A stretch of 64,000 nucleotides of DNA, taken from contig NC_134025.1 in NCBI RefSeq assembly GCF_964204645.1, positions 5,592,871-5,656,870 of the forward strand, given 5' to 3'. Within the stretch, counting starts at the first letter, position 1. Each line of letters starts with the position of its first letter. The DNA comes from Tubulanus polymorphus. Its lineage: Eukaryota > Animalia > Nemertea. A model generated the notes under the pieces. The model was not told the origin of the DNA. It made no database searches and worked only from the letters and a program-made list of their open reading frames with translations. Shown here piece after piece: positions 12,401 through 63,229 of the stretch. The translations under genes and the position numbers were made by a program.

Positions 12401-14590
12401 TGTTATCCATATTCTTACTGTGCGGCCTTTTTCGATAGTCAACATTATTGGAGGCTAAAATGTTAATAATTTGTTTCAGGCTCGCGTAGGCGCATACCCA
12501 TACCATGGGATAGTTAAAACTAAAAGATATATATGAATTGAAATATCAGGTTTTCGCGTAATGTTATTTTTTCTGTAACTGACTCCAGCTCGTGTGCACC
12601 TGATGCAACGAAGCTAATATCGAGTTAAGCCAGTCACTTGAAGATGTCAGTGGCGGACGTAGGCTCGAATTATTACCAAGTAGTCATGTGCCGAGTTGTG
12701 AATTTATTTTTACAACCAGATTAGGTTCATTAGAAAACATATCAGTGCAATTAACGTAATGATTTGTATGTAAGCGTGAAACGTTCGAATTCAATGAATT
12801 CTAGACTTCACAATAAATGAGCGTCGCTTGTCAGAATTGTGACAAGTCAAATGTTACGTCGTTATGCATTTAAACACAAGATAGAGACCCGTGTTTATGG
12901 GTGAATTTTTACTGAAATATACATAATACCTTAACAAGAGTAGCGCAGTCCACTTTCTTCCCAAGGTTTACTTAAACTACGGTGTTTAACCCGATTAGCG
13001 GAGTCCATGAACATGAAGATGATACATCTTGTGATAAAAGGTTAATGTCAGGTAGATGCACGTGAGATGGTGAATATTTTCATTAATGATATATGAAAGA
13101 ATAGGCGATTTTTTGGTTGTTATTTTACTCGAGTTTGATCGGTGGCCTGATGAATCAGCTGCCATCAATCATGAGATCGCTGAGATACTGCATGGATAAC
13201 ACGCATGCTGCTTTGACCCATGAGAATTAAAAAGAAATTCTCCGCTATTTTACAGCCATTATTTTCTTTGGGTGGTTTGACAAATCCATTTACCGTCACG
13301 ATCTTATTATCATTTTGCTACCGAAATTCGTGATAAACTGATAAGTTTCCTGCCAAAAAAACGGATTCATCTAATAGAAAAAAACCGTGAAATCTAACTC
13401 TTTATCATAAACCTTGCTTTGAATAACTTTCTGTTGAATTCAAAGGTTTGAATTAAGAGTTGTTTTTTCTATAAAACTTGCTTTTCCTTAAATATCAACT
13501 CTTGGTATTCCGGGACTGACTCGTAGCTCGTATAATAATCTCTCCGTTTACATTCCGTCCCGTTTAACGCTCCAGGGATACGAGTAAAAAACGACAATAC
13601 AATAGGCGGTTTGTGAAGGTATACTGGGCTAGTCAGAAAAGACGCTCGTAATCATGTTATTACAAACGAGTTTTTCATCAATTTCGAGCGATTCTGTTGA
13701 TAAATACAGCGGCAGATATCGTACACAGATGTGTGGTCGATCTTAACCGGTATTTTAACCACGCGTAACATATAGTAAAACATCGCTTATGTAATTCACT
13801 AGAAAATATTGCATAACGCGAGTGCGCACGTTCGGGCCTTCAAGTGTCCTTAGGAAATTCAATAGACTGAGGAAAATTAGTTTTTTTAAGCTAATAAAGA
13901 AATGTGAAGATGGAAGCTAGTTTATAGATGGGTTCTCGTTACAAATTGTTGGTGTCGATTTTCATTTGTTTTTATCAACTCAAATTATTTTCGTGGTCGA
14001 TGTGTGTTACTTATTACACGCAGTCTGATATCGTTCAGCTTATCATCAATTGGCGTCTCGTCTCAAATTTTACCAATCGTTCTTGAATCAATGGCTGGAT
14101 GAAAGTTGGCCAAACTCTCTCCTTCGCGGTCTCGTCGTTTCTGCGTAACGTAAAACCCATAAATAATATCTTTTGAAGGTCTGATTAAGTCGTGACTTGA
14201 AGAAGAAAAATCTCTGCTGGTAGCGGCTCGAGATTAATGCACTAACGGGAGGACAACGGGATTAAAGACCAGGGTTAAACTAAGGAGATTATTCTTTCAT
14301 TAATTTTGCCGCGTACTTTTTTTGAACTGCATTTAACTTCAGGTGCAGTAGATAGAAAAGAACCTGAGAATACCCGAGAAGCATTTTCTAAAAGTTGGAA
14401 CAAATCATTTTGTCCGTTCTTTTCATAGTATCGTAATTCATTTACGGAAATTTCCTATGCGTCCTGAAATATTTGGTACGCAGTAGGGATTTTTTTCCAC
14501 TAATGTCAGGGACATTTTCTAAGCCTATTCATTGTTTTTGCACCTAAATAACATTCGACACGTAAACAGTATTCATTGCGATGGCTAGGA

Positions 14591-14940
<350 letters not shown>

Positions 14941-16199
14941 ATACACGAAAAATAAAAATCCCGCAGTAGATCAAAATTATTTATTAACAGTTATCGGGCA
15001 ATTAATTATCTGAAACAATCTGACCCAATTTCCGCGTATGGTTGTAATTAATTATGGCGTTAGTTACGGTATTAATCACGTATATACGTATGCCCTTTAT
15101 CGTAGTTGCTATGAGATGAAGACCACAACATCAGAATCACGTGTTTTATAGAAAAATAACCCGCTATCTCCGCTGAATATAATTCATTCAAATCACGTGC
15201 TGAAAAATGTGAGATCGTTTCAATAAACCGAAATAAAAATTCTGCAAAAAACTGCACCAAACTTATAATATAGGTATGCTGTTTGAATATATATCAGCTT
15301 TCATAAATTTACACGTGCGTAGAATGAACATTTGTTTAATTACTGATTTCAAGTAAGTTGGAAAGATGCATTATCATCTTTGGTTCAGGGTGGGAACAGG
15401 GTATACGGAGGTTGTATCCTTGATCATCGTTGGCCGACGTGAGAGCTTGGTGCGGCGCACGGCTTCACTCCAGTATCACATCAATCATAAAACTGTAGTA
15501 GCACCGCTAATGAACCACTGTGACCGAGGCTTATACTTATCATTTATGTTTTAATTAATGGTGTATTGTGCTATAGCGGCATGTCTCGGAAGATGACGTA
15601 TGGACTGTGACCGATAATTGATCTCGGGTGTTTGAAATACGGCGTCGTGCGATACGCCGAAAACATGCTTAAAAAGCGGTGATTTTTACGACGCTTTCGA
15701 CGCACGCAGGCTAAAGTACGTCGTAAAGAATCGCTCAGAAAATTATATCAATTGATCCGCGAATACATGTACCGGGCATAATTACACCATGACCCGTAGT
15801 AAACAGTAGTAGTTTTTACGACAGGAGCCGCTTTGAATTTTACAATTCTCCAAAGAATCATCATTACATTCTACACGAAATGAAGTATATAATGGAAATA
15901 AGATCGTTGGATGAGTTATAACTTTTATGTCAAAAGAAGACAATACGTATTCACTGCCCTAATGGCATACGCCCAGATATAACCACATTTTCATTGCTAT
16001 CAAACCAAAACCCAGCAGGTTTTTAATCAATATCTCAAGCAACTATTTTGGAATGATATCAAACCGAACCTAGACTAGGTTTCGGTAAATCTGTAAACCC
16101 GATAGAAGGCCGGTAAAGAGTTTGGCATCCGGAATTGGTATTCCGAAACTGTAATACGTTCAATCGAAACCTGCCTAAAATTGTTAATGTATTGTGTTT

Positions 16200-43497: not shown

Positions 43498-44196
43498 ATG
43501 GCGAGTAATTCTGACAAGCGAACGTTTCGATTTCCTGGATTGAAGACTCTACGAAAGATTAAGTCGTCTTCCAAGATGAATAAAAACAGAAAAGCGGTGA
43601 AATTCGAAAGACAGAAAATCCAACCGCAGCCGTCACCAGTGTCGTGCAGTTCGGATAGCGGCAACGCGTCTATGTTTGAAAGCAGCTCCAATTCTTCGAT
43701 AGAATATTCGGTACGGGACATCGAACATGAACTGCGAAACAAAAAGTTCGACAGAATCCGCGAGAAGTTGAAGAATCTCAAGAGTAAAGACCAAGCTATG
43801 GTGCATAAAATCTTCGAATTACGGCAGAAGAATTCGCCAGTCCGCCATCACCAAAAAGTGGCACTGCCTGTAGTGAGTCCAAAGCATGTGGCAGTGCCTG
43901 TAGTGAGTCCAAAGCGTCTGTATTTGACGGTGCAGCGTCCGCGACCAATTTGTTCTTCGACGCCGATGCATCGACCGATCAGTTGCCAGATGAACGAACA
44001 GCGAAAACCCGTAAACGCAAATGCGGCTGTACTAGGCTCTCCGATCACTGGAATGATATCTAAATTTGGAATTCGAAGACCGGCGAAGCAGCCAGCGGCC
44101 AGTCGTCCGACATCGGTACCAGTTGCCAAACGAGGAGTCTACTACCGACCAGTAACGTATTTCGATGAACATGGACTAAAATGTACAAGGTGTTGA
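43498..44196 (+). CDS. Hypothetical intronless gene, 232-aa basic Ser/Pro-rich protein
   Basis: 699-nt ORF with ATG in good context. TATA box and Inr-like TCAGTT 50-90 bp upstream, ATTAAA signal about 115 bp downstream of the stop. No recognisable domain. Internal 30-bp tandem duplication (VALPVVSPKH/VAVPVVSPKR). Confidence 0.5.
   Translation: MASNSDKRTFRFPGLKTLRKIKSSSKMNKNRKAVKFERQKIQPQPSPVSCSSDSGNASMFESSSNSSIEYSVRDIEHELRNKKFDRIREKLKNLKSKDQAMVHKIFELRQKNSPVRHHQKVALPVVSPKHVAVPVVSPKRLYLTVQRPRPICSSTPMHRPISCQMNEQRKPVNANAAVLGSPITGMISKFGIRRPAKQPAASRPTSVPVAKRGVYYRPVTYFDEHGLKCTRC
43861..43920 (+). repeat. 30-bp tandem duplication (x2) inside the intronless ORF
   Basis: gcactgcctgtagtgagtccaaagcatgtg / gcagtgcctgtagtgagtccaaagcgtctg. 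Confidence 0.85.
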
Positions 44197-44583: not shown

Positions 44584-46143
44584 TTGCATAGCCGCAAAAT
44601 GTCGGCACCAGAAACAAAGTTGTTATCATTGAAGCGTTATCTGACAAATACTGAACGCGAAAATGAAATGGCTCTCAGGGGACGAGACCCCGATGATTCA
44701 TTTTTCGGGGCAAGAGTCATCGAGTGCCAACAAAATGTGGTCGAAGAAAGAAAACTGGCCAAAGAATTAGATGGTTTGGAAAGACAGAGAAAGATCGCGT
44801 TGGCTAGACTTAACAGTTCTCAACACATTCTTAAACTGACCTGTCGTAAGTATAATAAGGACAGAAAAAGCTCGACTACAATTATAAAGAAAAAAAGCAC
44901 TCAGGATCTTGGGGATACAGGAGATGATAGCTTCGTGCAGGTTGGGTTCCATTTTAAAGCCAACGGAGATCCTAGGCCAAGCGAGGGAGTTAGATTGTCA
45001 AGGTCGATATGTCGTCTGAAAAGCCAAATAAACGATATCAATCAAGCAATATCGACCTCATCGATAAAACACGATCACAATGTGGGGTCTTTTCGTAAAC
45101 TATCGAGCGATCCCGATACTGAGTCAGCGGAACAAGGGGAAATGATGAACGACGAGGAGTACCAAAAAGAAATGGACGAAGTTGAAAAAATGGTAACTGA
45201 ACTTATTAAAGCTGCGAAACGGCATCGAAGTACTACATTAGTAAAGAAGAACAACAAAGGTTCAGACGGAAAGCCGATGGTGGGAAAACATCAGTATCTC
45301 AGAGCTCATGAGAACGAATATGTCTGGCACTTAGAATCTGGTTCTGCTAGAAGGAATAACGACAATACAGGAGTTACCGCCGGTAAATTGTCTTTGACTC
45401 CGTCCGACCTTTACCGACCATCGTATACATCAAAAGCGACCCGAGGAAGCAGGGCAGCAGTTCTGGATCCGAAAGCGTCGTCCCTTTACAAAAATATTCA
45501 CCATACTAAAGCGCAATGTTTGGCATGCGAATATAGATTCAAACAATCAACGCATGAAGAAGTAAGCAAGGGGTCCTCGACGGTCAATGTTCAACCAACA
45601 CCTTCGTCTATGATGCGTAATCCAAGCTGTATTCTTAGAGCGTGGACTCCTTCTTCGGGAAGCCTTCACCACATCGACAACGCATCTTCATCGGGTTTAC
45701 TCCATCGTAAGGGGAGCTCTCGACATGCCGGTTTCAGCAATTCATCGGTAGCATCCTCATCGAACGAGTCAATAGACAGCAGATCGTCAACAACCAGTGC
45801 ACACCTGGCAGTCCCGGGTACGGGAGATTTACGGAAACAAATTCTGAAGAAGATGGTAGTTGCTAGAACGTTAACTCCAGATTCTAACGATAGTAGGTCC
45901 AGATCGCCGTCACCATTGGTCAGTCCTAGGGACGAACAACCGAGAGCTTCATCGTGTCCAGGGCAAGTTGATGCCGGTCATGGCGATACATTATCGATAG
46001 GACATACACCAAGCCCACCACTGGTCAGTAACGTATCAATAAAATTAAATGATCAAGATGAAAGTGAACATCTATTACACAGTCGATCCTCTCATAAATG
46101 GAAAAAACGATGTATATCGACGAAGGAATTGAAACACCAAGCG
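44584..46143 (+). CDS. Hypothetical gene exon 1 (disordered Ser-rich, N-terminal coiled-coil-like region)
   Basis: 1.6-kb ORF (536 codons in table). Donor GCGgtaagc at 46144 joins in phase 0 to the 46278 exon. Confidence 0.45.
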
Positions 46144-46277
46144 GTAAGCGATCATCAAGTCATGGACATTTCATTTAGAATATCTCTTATGTAATAATAG
46201 ATCCACAACCATTTTCATTATCAACATGGACCCATGCTAGACCATATACTTGTCAACCAGGAAAAAATTTTTTGTAG

Positions 46278-47268: not shown

Positions 47269-57265
<9,997 letters not shown>

Positions 57266-58427
57266 TCCCAGAGATGAATTGAAAGACAACTCGGCAACAA
57301 ACTGAACGTCATTATTGGAAATTCCACCATTCTGAAAACAGACCAAGTTAATAGTTTGCGAAATGGATTTTTTCAAAGCTTAGTTAATATACCGATAGAT
57401 AAGCTTAGAATACCCAGTCTTACTCCTGAATGAAATATTCATTTATGATAGTAACTCAGGCGTACCTGTTCATGTTGTTGCTTGTCTTTTCTTTGGTTAT
57501 CAATATCATTTGAAGTGCTGTTAAAGCAAAAAGCCAGAAAAGATTATTATCTTTACACATTTGATCTTTTTTGGCGTGATGAGTTTCAATAATGGGTCAA
57601 ATCATTACTTTATGTTATTCACTTTTGTGGGATATGTTTGGTTCACAGGTATTCGACCAAGAAATCTTCTCTTTCCTCCTTCCATCGGAATATTCTTAAA
57701 TCATAAGCCAAACTCAAGCATCATCTCTATCCTTACTTGGATGAAAAACGAAAAGGTTAGAACTACAAGAAATACAAATTCTAATCAACCTTTCTCTTTG
57801 CTGGGTACAAGTTTTTCTGACTATTGCCAGGAGGCACTGTTGTATGTCATTAGACTGTTGTAGTCAAAGTGCAGCATCAGTCAGCGAGGCCGGGGCATGA
57901 TGGTTGTGTTCTGATATTGGATTACTAAAAAATCAAGTCAAGCATGTCAAGCGGTACTATTTCATTGGACAGTTGGATAGCAACAATAATGGGCCCTGTG
58001 TCGTGAAAAGCCCTGTGATATATCCGACCATGTCTGAGTGTAGCCACCCATCACCCATACTGTACTGCTGGTATCTATGACCATCATCTATGGATTGGAC
58101 ATTGGCTGTTGGGCGCAGACATGGTTTTATTGGTTGTATTGTGGTCCGCTGTGTGTGGACTGTGCACAGGGGCTCATCACGATAGCTGGGGGTAAAAATC
58201 AAAGATTTGACCCAGTATCCTAGGTACCACCTATAAAAAAAGGTCTTTTTTTTGGCGGTAAGCTTTTTATAATCGGAATCGGATGGGCTTATACCAACGT
58301 GGAAATATCCGATCGTGAAACTAAACCACAGACAGGTTACTTTAACTTACTGACTACTACTTGTCACCCGTGTGTGGATGATTCACGATTGCCTTATTCA
58401 CATTCAGCCTTATATATACAAAACCGC

Positions 58428-58437
58428 ATATAAATCA
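58428..58437. repeat. Putative target-site duplication (ATATAAATCA), left copy
   Basis: Identical 10-mer at 59055-59064 immediately outside the right TIR. Exact TSD length 8-10 bp is ambiguous. Confidence 0.5.
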
Positions 58438-58480
58438 CCCCAGTGAAGTTCATTACTTGTTCCTTATTCCTTATTCCATT
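58438..58480. repeat. Left terminal inverted repeat of the MITE-like element
   Basis: About 43 nt, reverse-complementary to 59005-59053 with a few mismatches. Confidence 0.65.
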
Positions 58481-58499
58481 ACTTATTCGGAATTCATCG

Positions 58500-58995
58500 C
58501 CCAATAAGGAACAAGTAGGCCTAACTTGTTCCTTGTTCCTTATTGGGCGATGAATTCTCAATAAGTAACGAAAATTGAACCGGTAAAGACGAAAATCTGA
58601 ATAAGGAACAAGGAACAAGTTACTTGTTCCTTATTGGGCGATGAATTCTCAATAAGTAACGAAAATTGAACCGGTAAAGACGAAAATCTGAATAAGGAAC
58701 AAGGAACAAGTTACTTGTTCCTTATTGGGAGATGAATTCTCAATAAGTTACGAAAATTGAACCGGTAAAGACGAAAAAAATCTGAATAAGGAACAAGGAA
58801 CAAGTAACATGTTATTGTTACTTGTTCCTTATTGGGAGATGAATTCTCAATAAATAACAAGAAAATCTGAATAAGTAACAAGGAACAAGTAACATATTAC
58901 CTGTTCCTTATTGGGAAATGAATTCTCAATAAGTAACAAGAAAATCTGAATAAGGAACAAGTAACATGTTACTTGATCCTTATTGGGAGATGAAT
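58500..58995. repeat. Internal tandem array of about 6 units (70-91 bp), each carrying the palindrome GGAACAAGT..ACTTGTTCC
   Basis: Repeated unit ttgttccttattgggNgatgaattctcaataagtaacgaaaattgaaccggtaaagacgaaaatctgaataaggaacaaggaacaagt. The shorter variants lack the gaaaattgaaccggtaaagacg block. Confidence 0.7.
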
Positions 58996-59004
58996 TCTCA
59001 ATAA

Positions 59005-59053
59005 AATGGAATTGGAATAAGGAATAAGGAACAAGTAATGAACTTAACTGGGG
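59005..59053. repeat. Right terminal inverted repeat
   Basis: See left TIR. Confidence 0.65.
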
Positions 59054-59054
59054 T

Positions 59055-59064
59055 ATATAAATCA
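59055..59064. repeat. Putative target-site duplication, right copy
   Basis: See left copy. Confidence 0.5.
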
Positions 59065-59713
59065 TACATTTTCTCAAAGAGCTAGGTGATGGAGACTTAT
59101 GTTGTATTAATAAATGACCGATTGATACTTTCAAGGGAAACTAACAAGATAATCAAGATAATTTACAACTGCAAAAGTTCTAATTTCCCGCAAGTGGCAC
59201 CTCGACGGCGGCCATTTTGGTGGCAGCACTGTACGGTCACCACCAACTGCGAACTAGCGCGCTCACGATTTATTTTCTAATGAACGTAATGCAAAACCAC
59301 TTAATAATTATCAAAACTCCAATATTTACAAAACAGGGCAGAGCAATTTCAAATATACTGATGTAAATATTTCTACCATCACGGGTCCATTGTATTTTTA
59401 TTGCATTCAGGTTCACCTCAGCCAGAATTCCACCAGTTGACCCCAATAAAATGCTGAAACCTGGTGTATGCTGCATAAATACGAACCACATATTTTTCAT
59501 CAACGCTATCTAGTACTAAGAAAAAAACAGATTTCTTTACATTACATACATTTTATTTTCATATACTGTATATATAATATACATACATGTACATATCATG
59601 TTACACAGGTAAACAGAGATTGACACATAAACACATTATAAAAGTCAGAAAATTACAAAATTTACAATATTGTCCAAACCTAATGAGAATATTCGCGAGA
59701 ACCTAAATTAATT

Positions 59714-59953
59714 TCATTTTTTGAAAGATGATAAGGTTGTGAATTGTATACGACGCTTCTGTTTCATCAGGTCCTCCTGAGTCAGCGTCGATTGACTAGA
59801 TTCATCTCCGGAAAGTTCAAGAACAAGGTGTAAATCTTTCTCTTCCTCATTATGAACCGTTGCACCTCCAAAATCAGTTGTAGAATGTTCCTGCTTCGGG
59901 GTTTCGCTCTTGACAATTGAAGGAGGTGCTAAATTCGGTTTAGCACTAGGGGA
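59714..59953 (-). CDS. CHAF1B: CHAF1B last exon (stop TGA 59714-59716)
   Basis: 79-codon open frame after acceptor ctttcag. [21 protein letters not shown]...[14 protein letters not shown]. Confidence 0.65.
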   Translation of the reverse strand, partial: SPSAKPNLAPPSIVKSETPKQEHSTTDFGGATVHNEEEKDLHLVLELSGDESSQSTLTQEDLMKQKRRIQFTTLSSFKK

Positions 59954-62749
59954 CTGAAAGATGAAATAACAGTTTCAATTTTCTAGAAGATAAATTTTTT
60001 AGCAATGATAAGTTGTTTTCCAAGAAAATGGATTGAATTTTTACCTTTGACGATAAAGTAATTAACGAGACGCGTCGTTTACCACTTGAAGCATCTGAGA
60101 CAGTACTAGACCTACATGTAGTTGGTTTCCTTGAAAAAATATGAAATCACAATCATACATTTGTTAAACAAATCAATGGTCAATTTCTTAATTCCAAACT
60201 AATGCTCACTGTACTATTTGAACATCTGGACTATCTGATGTTTGAGCACCGGGGATTTTAGTGTTTTCCTTTTGTTGTTCGACAGGTTCGAGCAATTTTA
60301 CGCTTTCAGTTGCTCCTTCCATCTAGAATTCAAAGGAGCTCATGAATAAACATCGAATCAGATATAAATTCTTTTTCACAATTAGTTAAGTACTTAGTTA
60401 AGATTTTTCTGAAAATTTGTTCACCTTTTTCAGATCATTTTCCTTTGTTTTCATCTTCTCTTCAGATTCTGACTGCGGTTTGTACGGTTTTCCTAATTCT
60501 CCCTCTTGAAACGATATGAAAGAACAATAGCCATCTGTCGAAGATATGGCTAATATTCTACCATCCGATGACCTAAAATTTAGATAATACCGACCAAGAA
60601 AACATAAAATCTGCCTTCCGACTAAATGCTAGCAGAATTTTAAACAAATGGAGATGCTCATACCAAGCCAAGTCACTGAGTTGATGGTAGTGAATATTTG
60701 TAACCCGAAGAAATGGAACCGCTTGCTGTGTGTCATACAGTAAAACTGCATCTTCAGTTGCAACGGCAAATATTATTCGGTATGGAAGACTGAAATAACG
60801 AAATCATTATATTAGCTCTTTAATAGATTAAGTTACGATAAATTTGCATGAAAGTTTAAACAGTAAGTATCTACCAAAATAACGATTGATATTTTTCCCA
60901 CTCTTTTCGATTATTGTTTTCCACATCTTCGGCTTTTTCTGGATAAAAAAAAGATATTTTACACTTTAAATTGATAATTGGAAAAGTAATTCTTTTTTCT
61001 AAATTTTACAAAAAAGGATCAATGCATAGAAAATGTTTTAATGAACATGTTAGAGCACATTCTACAAAATGTAGGTCTGTTTATTGACAGTTTGAATTGT
61101 ACACTAACCATCCTTTTGTCTGGGAATCTTCCGTAATTCAAATAGTACAGGCGAACATCTTACAATCAATGAAGCTTTACCATCGACAGGCAGATGTAGA
61201 GCTGGTCTGTTTAAAAACAACAGAAATCGATGCCAAAACCAATTCAAAGGGTGATGTCAAAAGATAATGTCAAAATACCATCATCCAAAAAACCCTAAGA
61301 ACTCACCGAGAAAATGATCCTCTTGTGAATATATATGAAGTGTTCAAAACTGAATCACCACTTTCGATACAACCGGCCGGGGTAATCAATAACTCTCCAT
61401 CAGGCGAAAAACACAACCGACGGAAAAATGATTTCATCGAATCGTCGTGAAACATTCTCGACAATTTCGATTTTCCTTTGTCGGCCGACGTGACGAGTTT
61501 CGTCACTTTTTGAATGCATTGTTTCGTATTGACATTGTATATTCTGCAACACCTGGAATATCATTGAAACCTAACTTAAGTTCATACATTTTATAGTAAA
61601 ACTACTACTTACGACAATCATTTATCATCTATGGATTAAAATTGTCTTACTTTCGGTGATTAATATTTACCTATCACAACTCAAAGTAGCTACGTATTGA
61701 TTCAAAGGATCCCACGCAACTCCCTGTACAAAACTCTTGTGTTCTTTCAGTATACTTATGCTTTTGCCTGAATTGAAGATAATGAATTCATGAAGGACTG
61801 GGTAATAAAATTAGACCGATAACCGACTGTTAGCCAGCGGCGAGTAACTCACCTTTTTTCACATCCCACATTATAGCGCTATTATCTACCGAACCAGAAA
61901 TTAGGAAATTACTGTCTGCCGACCAGCACAAATCATAGATATCCTCAATATGACCCCTGAAACGTTTAAACAAGACATCTCATCCCGAAATCAATTTTGC
62001 TGCAAATCGGAACATATTTCATTGGCAGATTTTAACATCGTAAATTCTCTAAATTTTCTATCCATTGAGTTAAACCAGGGCTAAAGTAATGATACACCAT
62101 CAAGTTATATATGGAACATTATTAACCTGAGGGTTTTGATAACACTCCAATTTTCCAAGTTCTCATCATCTTCGTCTTGAAATATACTCGGAGCGGCTGC
62201 ACTGTTGTCATTCTGTTGCCACAACAGTATCACAGAATCTACAAAGAACGACACAATGTATCAGAAGAGCGTTTTGAAAATATTGAGGGCGGCCTATTCT
62301 CAACTCACAAGATACCAAGTCTTGAAAGTATCTATTTTAATGAGACCCAACAGGTTGTTCACTTATTTTTTCAAAACAAAACAAGAAATTCAACTTACCA
62401 TCTCCACCAGATGCCAATATCTCACCTGAAATAAATTTTAAGAAAAAAACAATTAATACAATGCATCTATTAACTAAGAGTTTCGAGGAAAAATCCAATC
62501 AATCAGGCATATTTTACCATTTGGTGAAAATCTAACAGCATTCACTGCCCGTGTATGTCGTGTTAGAGTTGCCAGAAACTGAGTACAAGCTTGTCCTTCA
62601 TCATCAATTATAACTCGCCAGATACGGATATTCTTGTCGGTACCCGATGTCACCAATCTTGTGATTTCTCCGTTTTTATCGTGCTGAAAATCGATACTGT
62701 AGATCGGGTCTCTGTTATGCCATGAGATTTCTGGTGTTACCAACTTCAT
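59714..62749 (-). CDS. CHAF1B: Chromatin assembly factor 1 subunit B (CAF-1 p60, WD40) gene
   Basis: The N-terminus [36 protein letters not shown] and the internal block [47 protein letters not shown] closely match human CHAF1[23 protein letters not shown] and [18 protein letters not shown] are also conserved. Eleven exons mapped, and one C-terminal segment (about 60112-60424) is unresolved. Confidence 0.85.
60045..60111 (-). CDS. CHAF1B: CHAF1B penultimate exon (tentative; the exon upstream of it is unresolved)
   Basis: Good acceptor and donor (TCAAAGgtaaaa) and open frame [22 protein letters not shown] in phase with the last exon, but the preceding junction phase could not be reconciled. 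Confidence 0.35.
60425..60572 (-). CDS. CHAF1B: CHAF1B exon 10
   Basis: [50 protein letters not shown]. Confidence 0.75.
60664..60789 (-). CDS. CHAF1B: CHAF1B exon 9
   Basis: [42 protein letters not shown]. Confidence 0.75.
60876..60933 (-). CDS. CHAF1B: CHAF1B exon 8 (tentative)
   Basis: Phase-forced choice of acceptor. Poorly conserved segment. Confidence 0.4.
61109..61206 (-). CDS. CHAF1B: CHAF1B exon 7
   Basis: [33 protein letters not shown]. Confidence 0.7.
61307..61543 (-). CDS. CHAF1B: CHAF1B exon 6
   Basis: ...[51 protein letters not shown]. Confidence 0.8.
61671..61767 (-). CDS. CHAF1B: CHAF1B exon 5
   Basis: [32 protein letters not shown]. Confidence 0.75.
61853..61956 (-). CDS. 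CHAF1B: CHAF1B exon 4
   Basis: [35 protein letters not shown]. Confidence 0.75.
62127..62238 (-). CDS. CHAF1B: CHAF1B exon 3
   Basis: [37 protein letters not shown]. Confidence 0.75.
62399..62425 (-). CDS. CHAF1B: CHAF1B exon 2 (27-nt micro-exon)
   Basis: Encodes GEILASGGD, matching human [10 protein letters not shown]. Flanked by a tatttcag acceptor and GATGgtaagt donor. Confidence 0.7.
62518..62749 (-). CDS. CHAF1B: CHAF1B exon 1
   Basis: ATG at 62749, donor AATGgtaaaat. Confidence 0.85.
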
Positions 62750-63229
62750 TTTTCTGCAAAAAATATTATGTTCATTTCAATCTCATATTCATAATCAGCA
62801 CTCGGCCACAAAAAAGTAGGCCAGCAGCAACATTTTTGCTACTTGAGATAGACTTCACAAATAATACAACCCCGATGACGAAACAAAAGTAACTTCGGAA
62901 TTTGGACGTTGATAAGTACGCTAGGCAATAAAAATGTTTTTAGTTTCTGGGCGAAGAGTCTGGATCTGGATGATGAATGAAAAAAATGAAGAAGAAATGG
63001 ACTCGTCGTCGGCCGGCCCGCCGGGCACTTATTCAATAGAAAAACGTGTCCCCAAATTGCTTAAATTATAGACCGTTAAACTAATGTTGGTGTCTTTGGT
63101 ATCTTTATCGTTTTGTGTTTTGATTAATTACTGCTTTTATGAAGTTATCAAGGTAATTATTGGCAAAATCCTTTTGAATATTGAGCCTTAGTTCTTGGAA
63201 GTTAATACTAAATCGAGGAATTGATATCG

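Follow-up and report, generated by a model that had tools for sequence, protein, structure and literature searches.

Foldback elements with target-site duplications (TSDs) of 8-10 bp have mostly been placed in the Mutator-like superfamily (PMC4079207; PMC3169594), whose members (MULEs) possess TSDs of 8-11 bp, with 9 bp as the most frequent length (PMC6446971). Rehavkus, a MULE-related group present in insects and annelids, combines, as it is outlined in the two sources cited here, a 9-bp TSD and terminal inverted repeats (TIRs) of 26-400 bp with a minisatellite positioned just before the 3' TIR (PMC6446971; bioRxiv 10.1101/2024.12.02.626372). In Meloidogyne, the Mutator/Foldback family Tm1 has TSDs of 9 bp (8-10 bp) and composite, repeat-bearing TIRs that differ in length from each other, and some of its members are MITE-like (PMC3169594). 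Tetris and DAIBAM, the non-autonomous foldback elements of Drosophila virilis, also carry 8-10-bp TSDs and were put in Mutator on the basis of TSD length only (PMC4079207). For the Phantom-clade MULE Muta1 of Aedes aegypti, TSDs of 8-9 bp and tandem repeats in subterminal position have been described, and when it was mobilized in yeast, 80% of the reinsertions occurred in gene-rich regions (PMC5225508). Galileo of Drosophila is assigned, in the accounts of it that we cite, to the P superfamily (PMC3573991, PMC3688188; discussed in PMC4079207), and the tandem repeats within its TIRs have been proposed, as summarized in PMC4079207, to serve as secondary transposase-binding sites; this function of tandem repeats is stated for foldback elements generally in a Tribolium satellite-DNA preprint. 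The growth of such arrays inside the elements is a route to satellite DNA that has been described for Tetris and Rehavkus. MITEs, finally, are recognized by a length of <800 bp, TIRs, a flanking TSD, a non-coding and AT-rich sequence and a position near genes (PMC5199201); candidate families with <3 copies were dropped from the iMITEdb collection.

Here, we describe a non-coding element of 618 bp that is located between the genes CHAF1B and POLQ and occupies positions 58437-59054 of the window, by which we mean the whole 64-kb stretch of DNA that was analyzed. Its distance to the stop codon of CHAF1B, downstream of which it lies, is 659 bp (minus strand; the stop codon of the C-terminal exon ends at 59714), and it precedes the first ATG of POLQ by 1171 bp (minus strand; position 57265 in the N-terminal exon MDLGDDFF...), distances that the original prediction had put at 650 bp and about 1.1 kb, respectively. 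We consider it probable that this DNA segment represents one insertion, with its structure intact, of a Foldback-type cut-and-paste DNA transposon that is non-autonomous and has the size of a MITE, most likely a Mutator-like one. A non-autonomous Foldback/MITE-like DNA transposon had already been proposed for this locus, and the near-perfect TIRs, the exact abutting TSD, the length below 800 bp, and the AT-rich, non-coding and gene-adjacent nature of the element all speak in favor of this proposal. The coordinates of the individual features are compiled in Table 1.

Table 1. Features of the 618-bp element and its flanks (positions refer to the window; a dot denotes a feature without strand).
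Feature	Position	Strand	Properties
Left TSD, ATATAAATC	58428-58436	.	9 bp; 10 bp with A58437 included; the 10-mer is present at both flanks only in 64 kb
Left TIR, ACCCCAGTGAAGTTCATTACTTGTTCCTTATTCCTTATTCCA	58437-58478	+	42 nt; 98% complementary
Left arm	58437-58516	-	One whole inverted module (U0) with terminal motif; extended TIR of ~85 nt
Central loop, AGGCCTA	58517-58523	.	Fold-back center
Right-arm array, block 1	58524-58827	+	Three modules of 91-107 bp (U1-U3)
Right-arm array, block 2	58828-59012	+	Modules of 72-79 bp (U4, U5, start of U6); without the TTGAACCGGTAAAGAC insert
Unit-junction palindrome, AATAAGGAACAAGGAACAAGT/TACTTGTTCCTTATT	58600-58635	.	Fold z = -5.6
Other five unit-junction palindromes	58503-58544, 58691-58726, 58785-58833, 58877-58912, 58949-58984		
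Right TIR, end ...AACTGGGGT	59013-59054	-	One mismatch to left TIR
Right TSD, ATATAAATC	59055-59063	.	Flanking direct repeat
Empty site, ...AAAACCGCATATAAATCATACATTTTCTC...			Predicted for the uninserted allele

The two TIR arms are complementary to each other at 41 of their 42 positions, the lone mismatch being CCCCAGTG in the left arm versus CCCCAGTT in the right arm. When the left end is aligned with the reverse-complemented right end and gaps are permitted, the inverted repeat reaches about 85 nt at about 88% identity, interrupted by a few mismatches and by two indels of small size. The inverted ends of about 45 bp that had originally been predicted are therefore borne out and can even be extended. 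At the outer edges of the arms, the 10-mer ATATAAATCA is found at positions 58428-58437 and 59055-59064 and at no further position across the 64 kb. The TSD pair is also the only instance within the window of a 9-mer common to positions 627 bp apart, and the compositional chance of such a 9-mer match is about 7e-6. Because the A with which the left arm opens is complementary to the T that closes the right arm, we prefer a parse with a 9-bp TSD (ATATAAATC) around the symmetric termini A-CCCC...GGGG-T, the most parsimonious one. A TSD of 10 bp is possible, but one T at the right end is then left unpaired, and a TSD of 8 bp would need asymmetric termini since it cannot abut both of the symmetric ones. 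Hence, the direct duplication noted originally is present as an exact repeat at both flanks, but a length of 9 bp is preferred over the 10 bp given at that time. Positions 7-15 of the element (58443-58451 of the window) form a small palindrome, TGAA-G-TTCA (TGAAGTTCA), which is mirrored in the right TIR and might have arisen by chance.

Scans of the 64-kb window with patterns for the TIR and for the sub-repeats detected one copy of the element. If an (AT)n/(ATGT)n microsatellite is disregarded, it is the sole inverted-repeat-bounded structure in these 64 kb. The microsatellite, a compound (AT)n-(ATGT)n-(AT)n tract of about 350 bp within positions 14482-14972 (approximately 14.6-14.95 kb), dominates the list of inverted repeats in the window; two copies of AAAAAATCCCTACT precede it, and an inverted copy (AGTAGGGATTTTTTT) is present about 135 bp upstream.

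Between its ends, the element is composed of tandem units. TRF reported an array with a period of 91 (3.1 copies; positions 58528-58813; 95% matches) and an adjoining one with a period of 79 (2.8 copies; positions 58791-59005; 84% matches), a result that agrees well with the approximately six tandem units of the original prediction. The 27-nt motif CTTATTGGGNGATGAATTCTCAATAAG is present seven times (0 occurrences expected); six of these are direct copies that belong to the right part, and the left arm contains a single inverted copy (58482-58508). An alignment of the seven units revealed that all of them, both termini included, are variants of one module of about 72 nt, which consists of a small hairpin (CTTATTG-N13-CAATAAG) whose loop contains an EcoRI palindrome, a spacer, and then GAATAAGGAAYAAGGAACAAGT. 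In the terminal modules, GAATAAGGAAYAAGGAACAAGT is followed by AATGAACTTNACTGGGGT, the end of the transposon, whereas the internal modules have the start of the next module at this place. Each internal unit junction thereby forms a palindrome of about 14+14 nt (AATAAGGAACAAGT/ACTTGTTCCTTATT). Six such palindromes are present in total; the claim of one palindrome per unit was thus correct in kind, but the palindromes are longer than the 9+9 nt that had been ascribed to them.

The 91-bp units are distinguished from the 72-79-bp units by an insert of about 19 bp (TTGAACCGGTAAAGAC) that is flanked by repeated ACGAAAAT sequences, and the units U1 and U2 are 97% identical. Both the difference caused by the insert and the high identity of U1 and U2 point to growth of the right arm by local amplification in two or more rounds. 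The two arms are unequal, with one module on the left and six on the right, and only the 7-nt loop (58517-58523) separates them; the tandem array adjoins just one of the two TIRs. When folded as single-stranded DNA, the whole element reached -157.5 kcal/mol in comparison with -51.3 +/- 4.1 kcal/mol for shuffled sequences (z = -26). The hairpin around the central loop (58496-58550) reached -20.9 kcal/mol (z = -9.9), and the z values of the single junction hairpins range from -5.4 to -9.9. The potential for hairpin structure to which the original prediction had drawn attention is hence reflected in the computed folds.

On the minus strand, the element is crossed by two ORFs, 74 and 95 amino acids in length, which we regard as incidental. 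No protein relatives of any of its reading frames were found when an 870-amino acid concatenate of the stop-free segments of all six frames was compared with 5.8 billion proteins (0 of 8000 word-sharing candidates at E <= 1), in keeping with the absence of coding capacity that had been noted from the outset. The 95-amino acid ORF (58850-59134; minus strand) yielded a single match among 1.84 billion representatives (P0121; E = 3.8e-11, 10 stretches). We rejected this protein as a relative, because it is an unrelated 55-amino acid tandem-repeat ORF with 32% identity whose E-value is an artifact inflated by the repeats; its top-scoring stretch (query residues 9-41) moreover falls mostly in the flank and not in the element. 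None of the ten longest ORFs in the window was recognized as a transposase by a Pfam scan, and no Rfam families or tRNAs were detected in its 64 kb. Two other observations concern ORFs elsewhere in the window. One of 536 amino acids (44584-46194; plus strand) has a weak, sub-threshold match to PF03496 (ADP-ribosyltransferase exoenzyme; E = 0.002, 17.9 bits versus a cut-off of 23.4); if the match is real, such a domain would be an uncommon one in a gene of an animal. The other, at 43498-44196 (plus strand) and without a Pfam match, contains a 30-bp tandem duplication with 93% identity (43858-43917).

Searches for DNA relatives were conducted with patterns derived from the element. The TIR pattern had 0 matches in metagenome, prokaryotic-genome and viral contigs, and the sub-repeat pattern had 0 matches in viral and prokaryotic-genome contigs, results that are uninformative with respect to the copy number in the host; the palindrome pattern and the right-terminus pattern likewise had 0 matches in viral contigs. 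Among metagenome contigs, the sub-repeat pattern was found at six loci (L001-L006). We discarded these as copies of the element since each contains just one site of 25-27 nt and nothing else of it, and is therefore a chance or unrelated match. Five of the loci (L001-L005; contigs Ga0209700_112305, Ga0209489_103902, Ga0099824_1018358, Ga0099825_1014531 and Ga0123340_1024414) are AT-rich (GC 29-34%) and have their minor secondary matches in common, placed in a comparable relative arrangement; in all probability, one conserved gene of related organisms is present on them that is unrelated to the element. The terminal sequence of the element matched only unrelated primers or cDNAs in the text of the literature. 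A second copy, an autonomous partner or an empty site was not found in the metagenome, viral, prokaryotic-genome or protein collections, all of which are nearly blind to the host. The lack of sequence relatives in collections with this bias carries little weight in either direction; the element may represent a new family.

With respect to classification, the single copy displays the entire set of structural features by which MITEs are recognized: 618 bp in length, TIR and TSD, a GC content of 33.5%, a non-coding sequence, and the two genes close by. It likewise displays the features of foldback elements, with composite TIRs containing tandem subrepeats, unequal arms, a 7-nt loop and a strong computed fold. 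The 9-bp TSD, the composite TIRs with their subterminal repeats, the unequal arms and the near-absent middle domain define a Foldback architecture and, judged by the architecture that it shares with described elements, the element is a member of this known kind. The length of the TSD (an exact duplication of 9 bp, at most 10 bp) lies within the MULE range, and the combination of a 9-bp TSD, a TIR within 26-400 bp and a minisatellite directly before one TIR corresponds to the structure of Rehavkus. Classification by TSD length, as suggested in the original prediction, hence leads to Mutator-like elements and not to hAT elements with their 8-bp TSD.

Other types of elements differ from the one studied here in recognizable ways. 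Neither the 8-bp TSD of hAT nor the 7-8-bp TSD of P elements is present, as the exact duplication that abuts the symmetric termini comprises 9-10 bp. In the flanks (...AATC/A CCCC and GGGG T/ATAT..., with the slash marking the boundary), there is no TTAA, TA or TWA at the TIR as found with piggyBac, Tc1-mariner and PIF-Harbinger, respectively. Tandem-repeat elements derived from Helitrons or Helentrons, such as those of bivalves, have no TIRs and no TSD, possess a 3' hairpin and insert between specific bases; the 42-nt TIR and the 9-bp TSD set the element apart from them. Collectively, its TSD length and the minisatellite beside one TIR make the Mutator-like group the most likely affiliation, an assignment by structural analogy.

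The affiliation with the Mutator-like group has a competitor, a non-autonomous transposon of another superfamily that acquired its foldback structure independently. Merlin, whose TSDs are 8-9 bp long, would be a candidate, as would hAT or P elements if 1-2 additional bases of the duplication matched by chance. MULE TIRs often start G-rich, whereas the element starts with ACCCC, and its terminus ACCCCAGT departs from the G-rich end typical of MULEs; the TSD, moreover, is known from one insertion. Foldback architecture is polyphyletic as well, with Galileo as a representative of the P superfamily. We nevertheless regard another superfamily as unlikely, since the exact duplication is 9-10 bp long and a TSD of 8 bp cannot abut both symmetric termini, since the TSDs of P elements are 7-8 bp in length (PMC5199201), and since a one-sided minisatellite in conjunction with a 9-bp TSD is the Rehavkus/MULE pattern that has been described. 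We are similarly doubtful that the element is the first member to be encountered of an undescribed foldback family, maybe with a new transposase lineage, from a poorly sampled invertebrate of compact genome, that whole transposons of this family, their termini included, are iterated from one double-hairpin module of about 72 nt, and that the element is now perhaps a part of the POLQ promoter region into which it was inserted.

For the Foldback-type, Mutator-like insertion that we favor, the following course of events can be envisioned. Near-perfect TIRs and an exact 9-bp repeat that abuts them point to integration at a staggered cut by a DDE cut-and-paste transposase, and since the element contains no ORF for such an enzyme, we infer that it would be mobilized in trans. 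The transposase, encoded elsewhere and most likely Mutator-like (MULE, Rehavkus or Phantom), would recognize the terminal motif ACCCCAGTGAAGTTCA... together with the subterminal modules. It would then excise the element and insert it into the AT-rich sequence ATATAAATC, where a staggered cut of 9 bp is made, in the intergenic or promoter-proximal DNA between CHAF1B and POLQ, and gap repair following integration would give rise to the 9-bp duplication. Expansion of the right-arm array by slippage or unequal exchange may have proceeded in two steps, one involving the 72-79-bp type of unit and the other the 91-bp type with its 19-bp insert. By analogy with Galileo and foldback elements generally, the repeated modules probably serve as additional transposase-binding sites. 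The intact TSD, the 41/42 match of the TIRs and the 97% identity of units suggest that the insertion is a recent one.

The expansion of the array can also be taken as the starting point of a different scenario, in which an immobile palindromic minisatellite was born in the spacer between CHAF1B and POLQ by hairpin-primed or slippage duplication, with the 9-10-mer at the flanks as a by-product of this local process or a coincidence. In favor of this scenario are the presence of a single copy in the 64-kb window and the clear local expansion documented by the 97% identity of U1 and U2, and the flank is AT-rich and low in information content. Yet tandem expansion does not yield inverted unique termini that are bracketed by a direct duplication, and it is precisely such a unique terminal segment (ACCCCAGTGAAGTTCATTA) that is inverted at both extremes of the element and abuts the direct repeat with its very low chance probability. 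We therefore deem an origin of the structure in situ very unlikely.

The genomic surroundings of the element are compact. Both POLQ (53800-57400) and CHAF1B (59700-62750), each on the minus strand, are split into many short exons, and the ORFs of adjoining exons overlap or are just a few tens of bases apart. The best protein matches of the POLQ helicase exon are 58-70% identical, with at most 62% over the full length and up to 70% for partial matches; the limpet Patella caerulea, a mollusc, is among them (63%). CHAF1B is presumably well conserved in comparison with the human protein. The short and tightly spaced exons, the paucity of repeats in the window and the conservation of CHAF1B suggest a slowly evolving invertebrate with a compact genome. 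Within this DNA, the element is a lone insertion; apart from the microsatellite, there is no further dispersed repeat in the window.

About 130-200 bp beyond the right end of the element, there is a locally GC-rich patch (59180-59265). Within it are an E2F-type site (TTTCCCGC) at 59184-59191 on the plus strand and, on the minus strand, the sequence AAAATGGCCGCCGTCGAGG, which resembles the YY1/'ATGGCGGC' core-promoter motif. The POLQ promoter might be located at this patch, and the position of the element would then be just downstream of that promoter. Nine sites with the E2F-type motif occur in the window versus 4.9 expected ones, and since 7 of 100 shuffled sequences reach this number, the motif is not enriched; we have dropped a promoter reading built on the E2F-type motif near the element for this reason. 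That the palindromes are an exapted regulatory or structural module, with clustered protein-binding sites or a source of hairpin RNA that serve the promoter of POLQ or the 3' region of CHAF1B and a transposon origin of secondary importance, might be argued from the strong hairpin potential, the proximity to both genes and the E2F-type site about 130 bp from the right end, but is extremely unlikely in view of the near-identical TIRs, intact TSD and 97%-identical units, which indicate a recent insertion as opposed to a conserved module, the lack of enrichment of the E2F-type motif and the absence of an Rfam match in the window.

The element, probably a recent Foldback-type insertion, is well preserved but ordinary in kind. 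It is a clean example of construction from one iterated module that is coupled to the growth of an array inside one arm. Should it be confirmed as a family, the repeats catalogued for an invertebrate with a compact and repeat-poor genome would be extended by a Foldback/MULE-like MITE. Its intact TIRs and TSD hint at recent activity, so that a live autonomous MULE may possibly be present in the genome of the host. Hypothetically, a cruciform-prone palindromic array of about 600 bp near the 5' region of POLQ could also affect local stability or expression.

Each of the described systems introduced above shares part of its design with the element. Galileo, which has a TSD of 7 bp, resembles it in the long, internally repetitive TIRs, and thereby provides a mechanistic model for the modules found here. 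The 7-8-bp TSD of the P superfamily (PMC5199201), however, is unlike the 9-10 bp of the element. Muta1 is similar in its 8-9-bp TSDs and in the order of its terminal features, a short terminal motif that includes a small palindrome (here TGAAGTTCA) and then tandem repeats in subterminal position, and Muta1 derivatives carry variable numbers of repeats. Most of the Muta1 reinsertions in yeast were in gene-rich regions, and the insertion studied here is located between two closely spaced genes. On the other hand, the subrepeats of Muta1 are 12 bp long, separated by 3-4-bp spacers and arranged symmetrically in both 145-bp TIRs, and its mobility and transposase have been demonstrated experimentally, whereas the element is known from its sequence alone.

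Tetris and DAIBAM are comparable in that they are non-autonomous and possess 8-10-bp TSDs, and the reasoning from TSD length that led to their placement in Mutator is the same that we have applied. Tetris differs in being kb-sized, with repeats in both arms, a middle domain and satellite arrays that it has seeded; the element, with its 618 bp, expanded in one arm. Tm1 matches more of its features, namely the 9-bp (8-10 bp) TSD, TIRs built from tandem repeats, arms that are unequal through the number of these repeats, and non-coding, MITE-like members. Tm1 repeats, however, are about 14 bp in length, and Tm1 has asymmetric terminal 7-mers and a distinct middle domain, whereas the element contains 72-91-bp units with internal palindromes, symmetric termini and essentially no middle domain; the two show no sequence similarity.

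Rehavkus is defined by a PHD-finger DDE transposase, while the element is devoid of an ORF and is likened to Rehavkus by its architecture. With a 9-bp TSD, a TIR within the range of 26-400 bp, a minisatellite by one TIR and a foldback-like architecture in common, Rehavkus nonetheless appears, by analogy of structure, to be the closest described architecture to that of the element between CHAF1B and POLQ.
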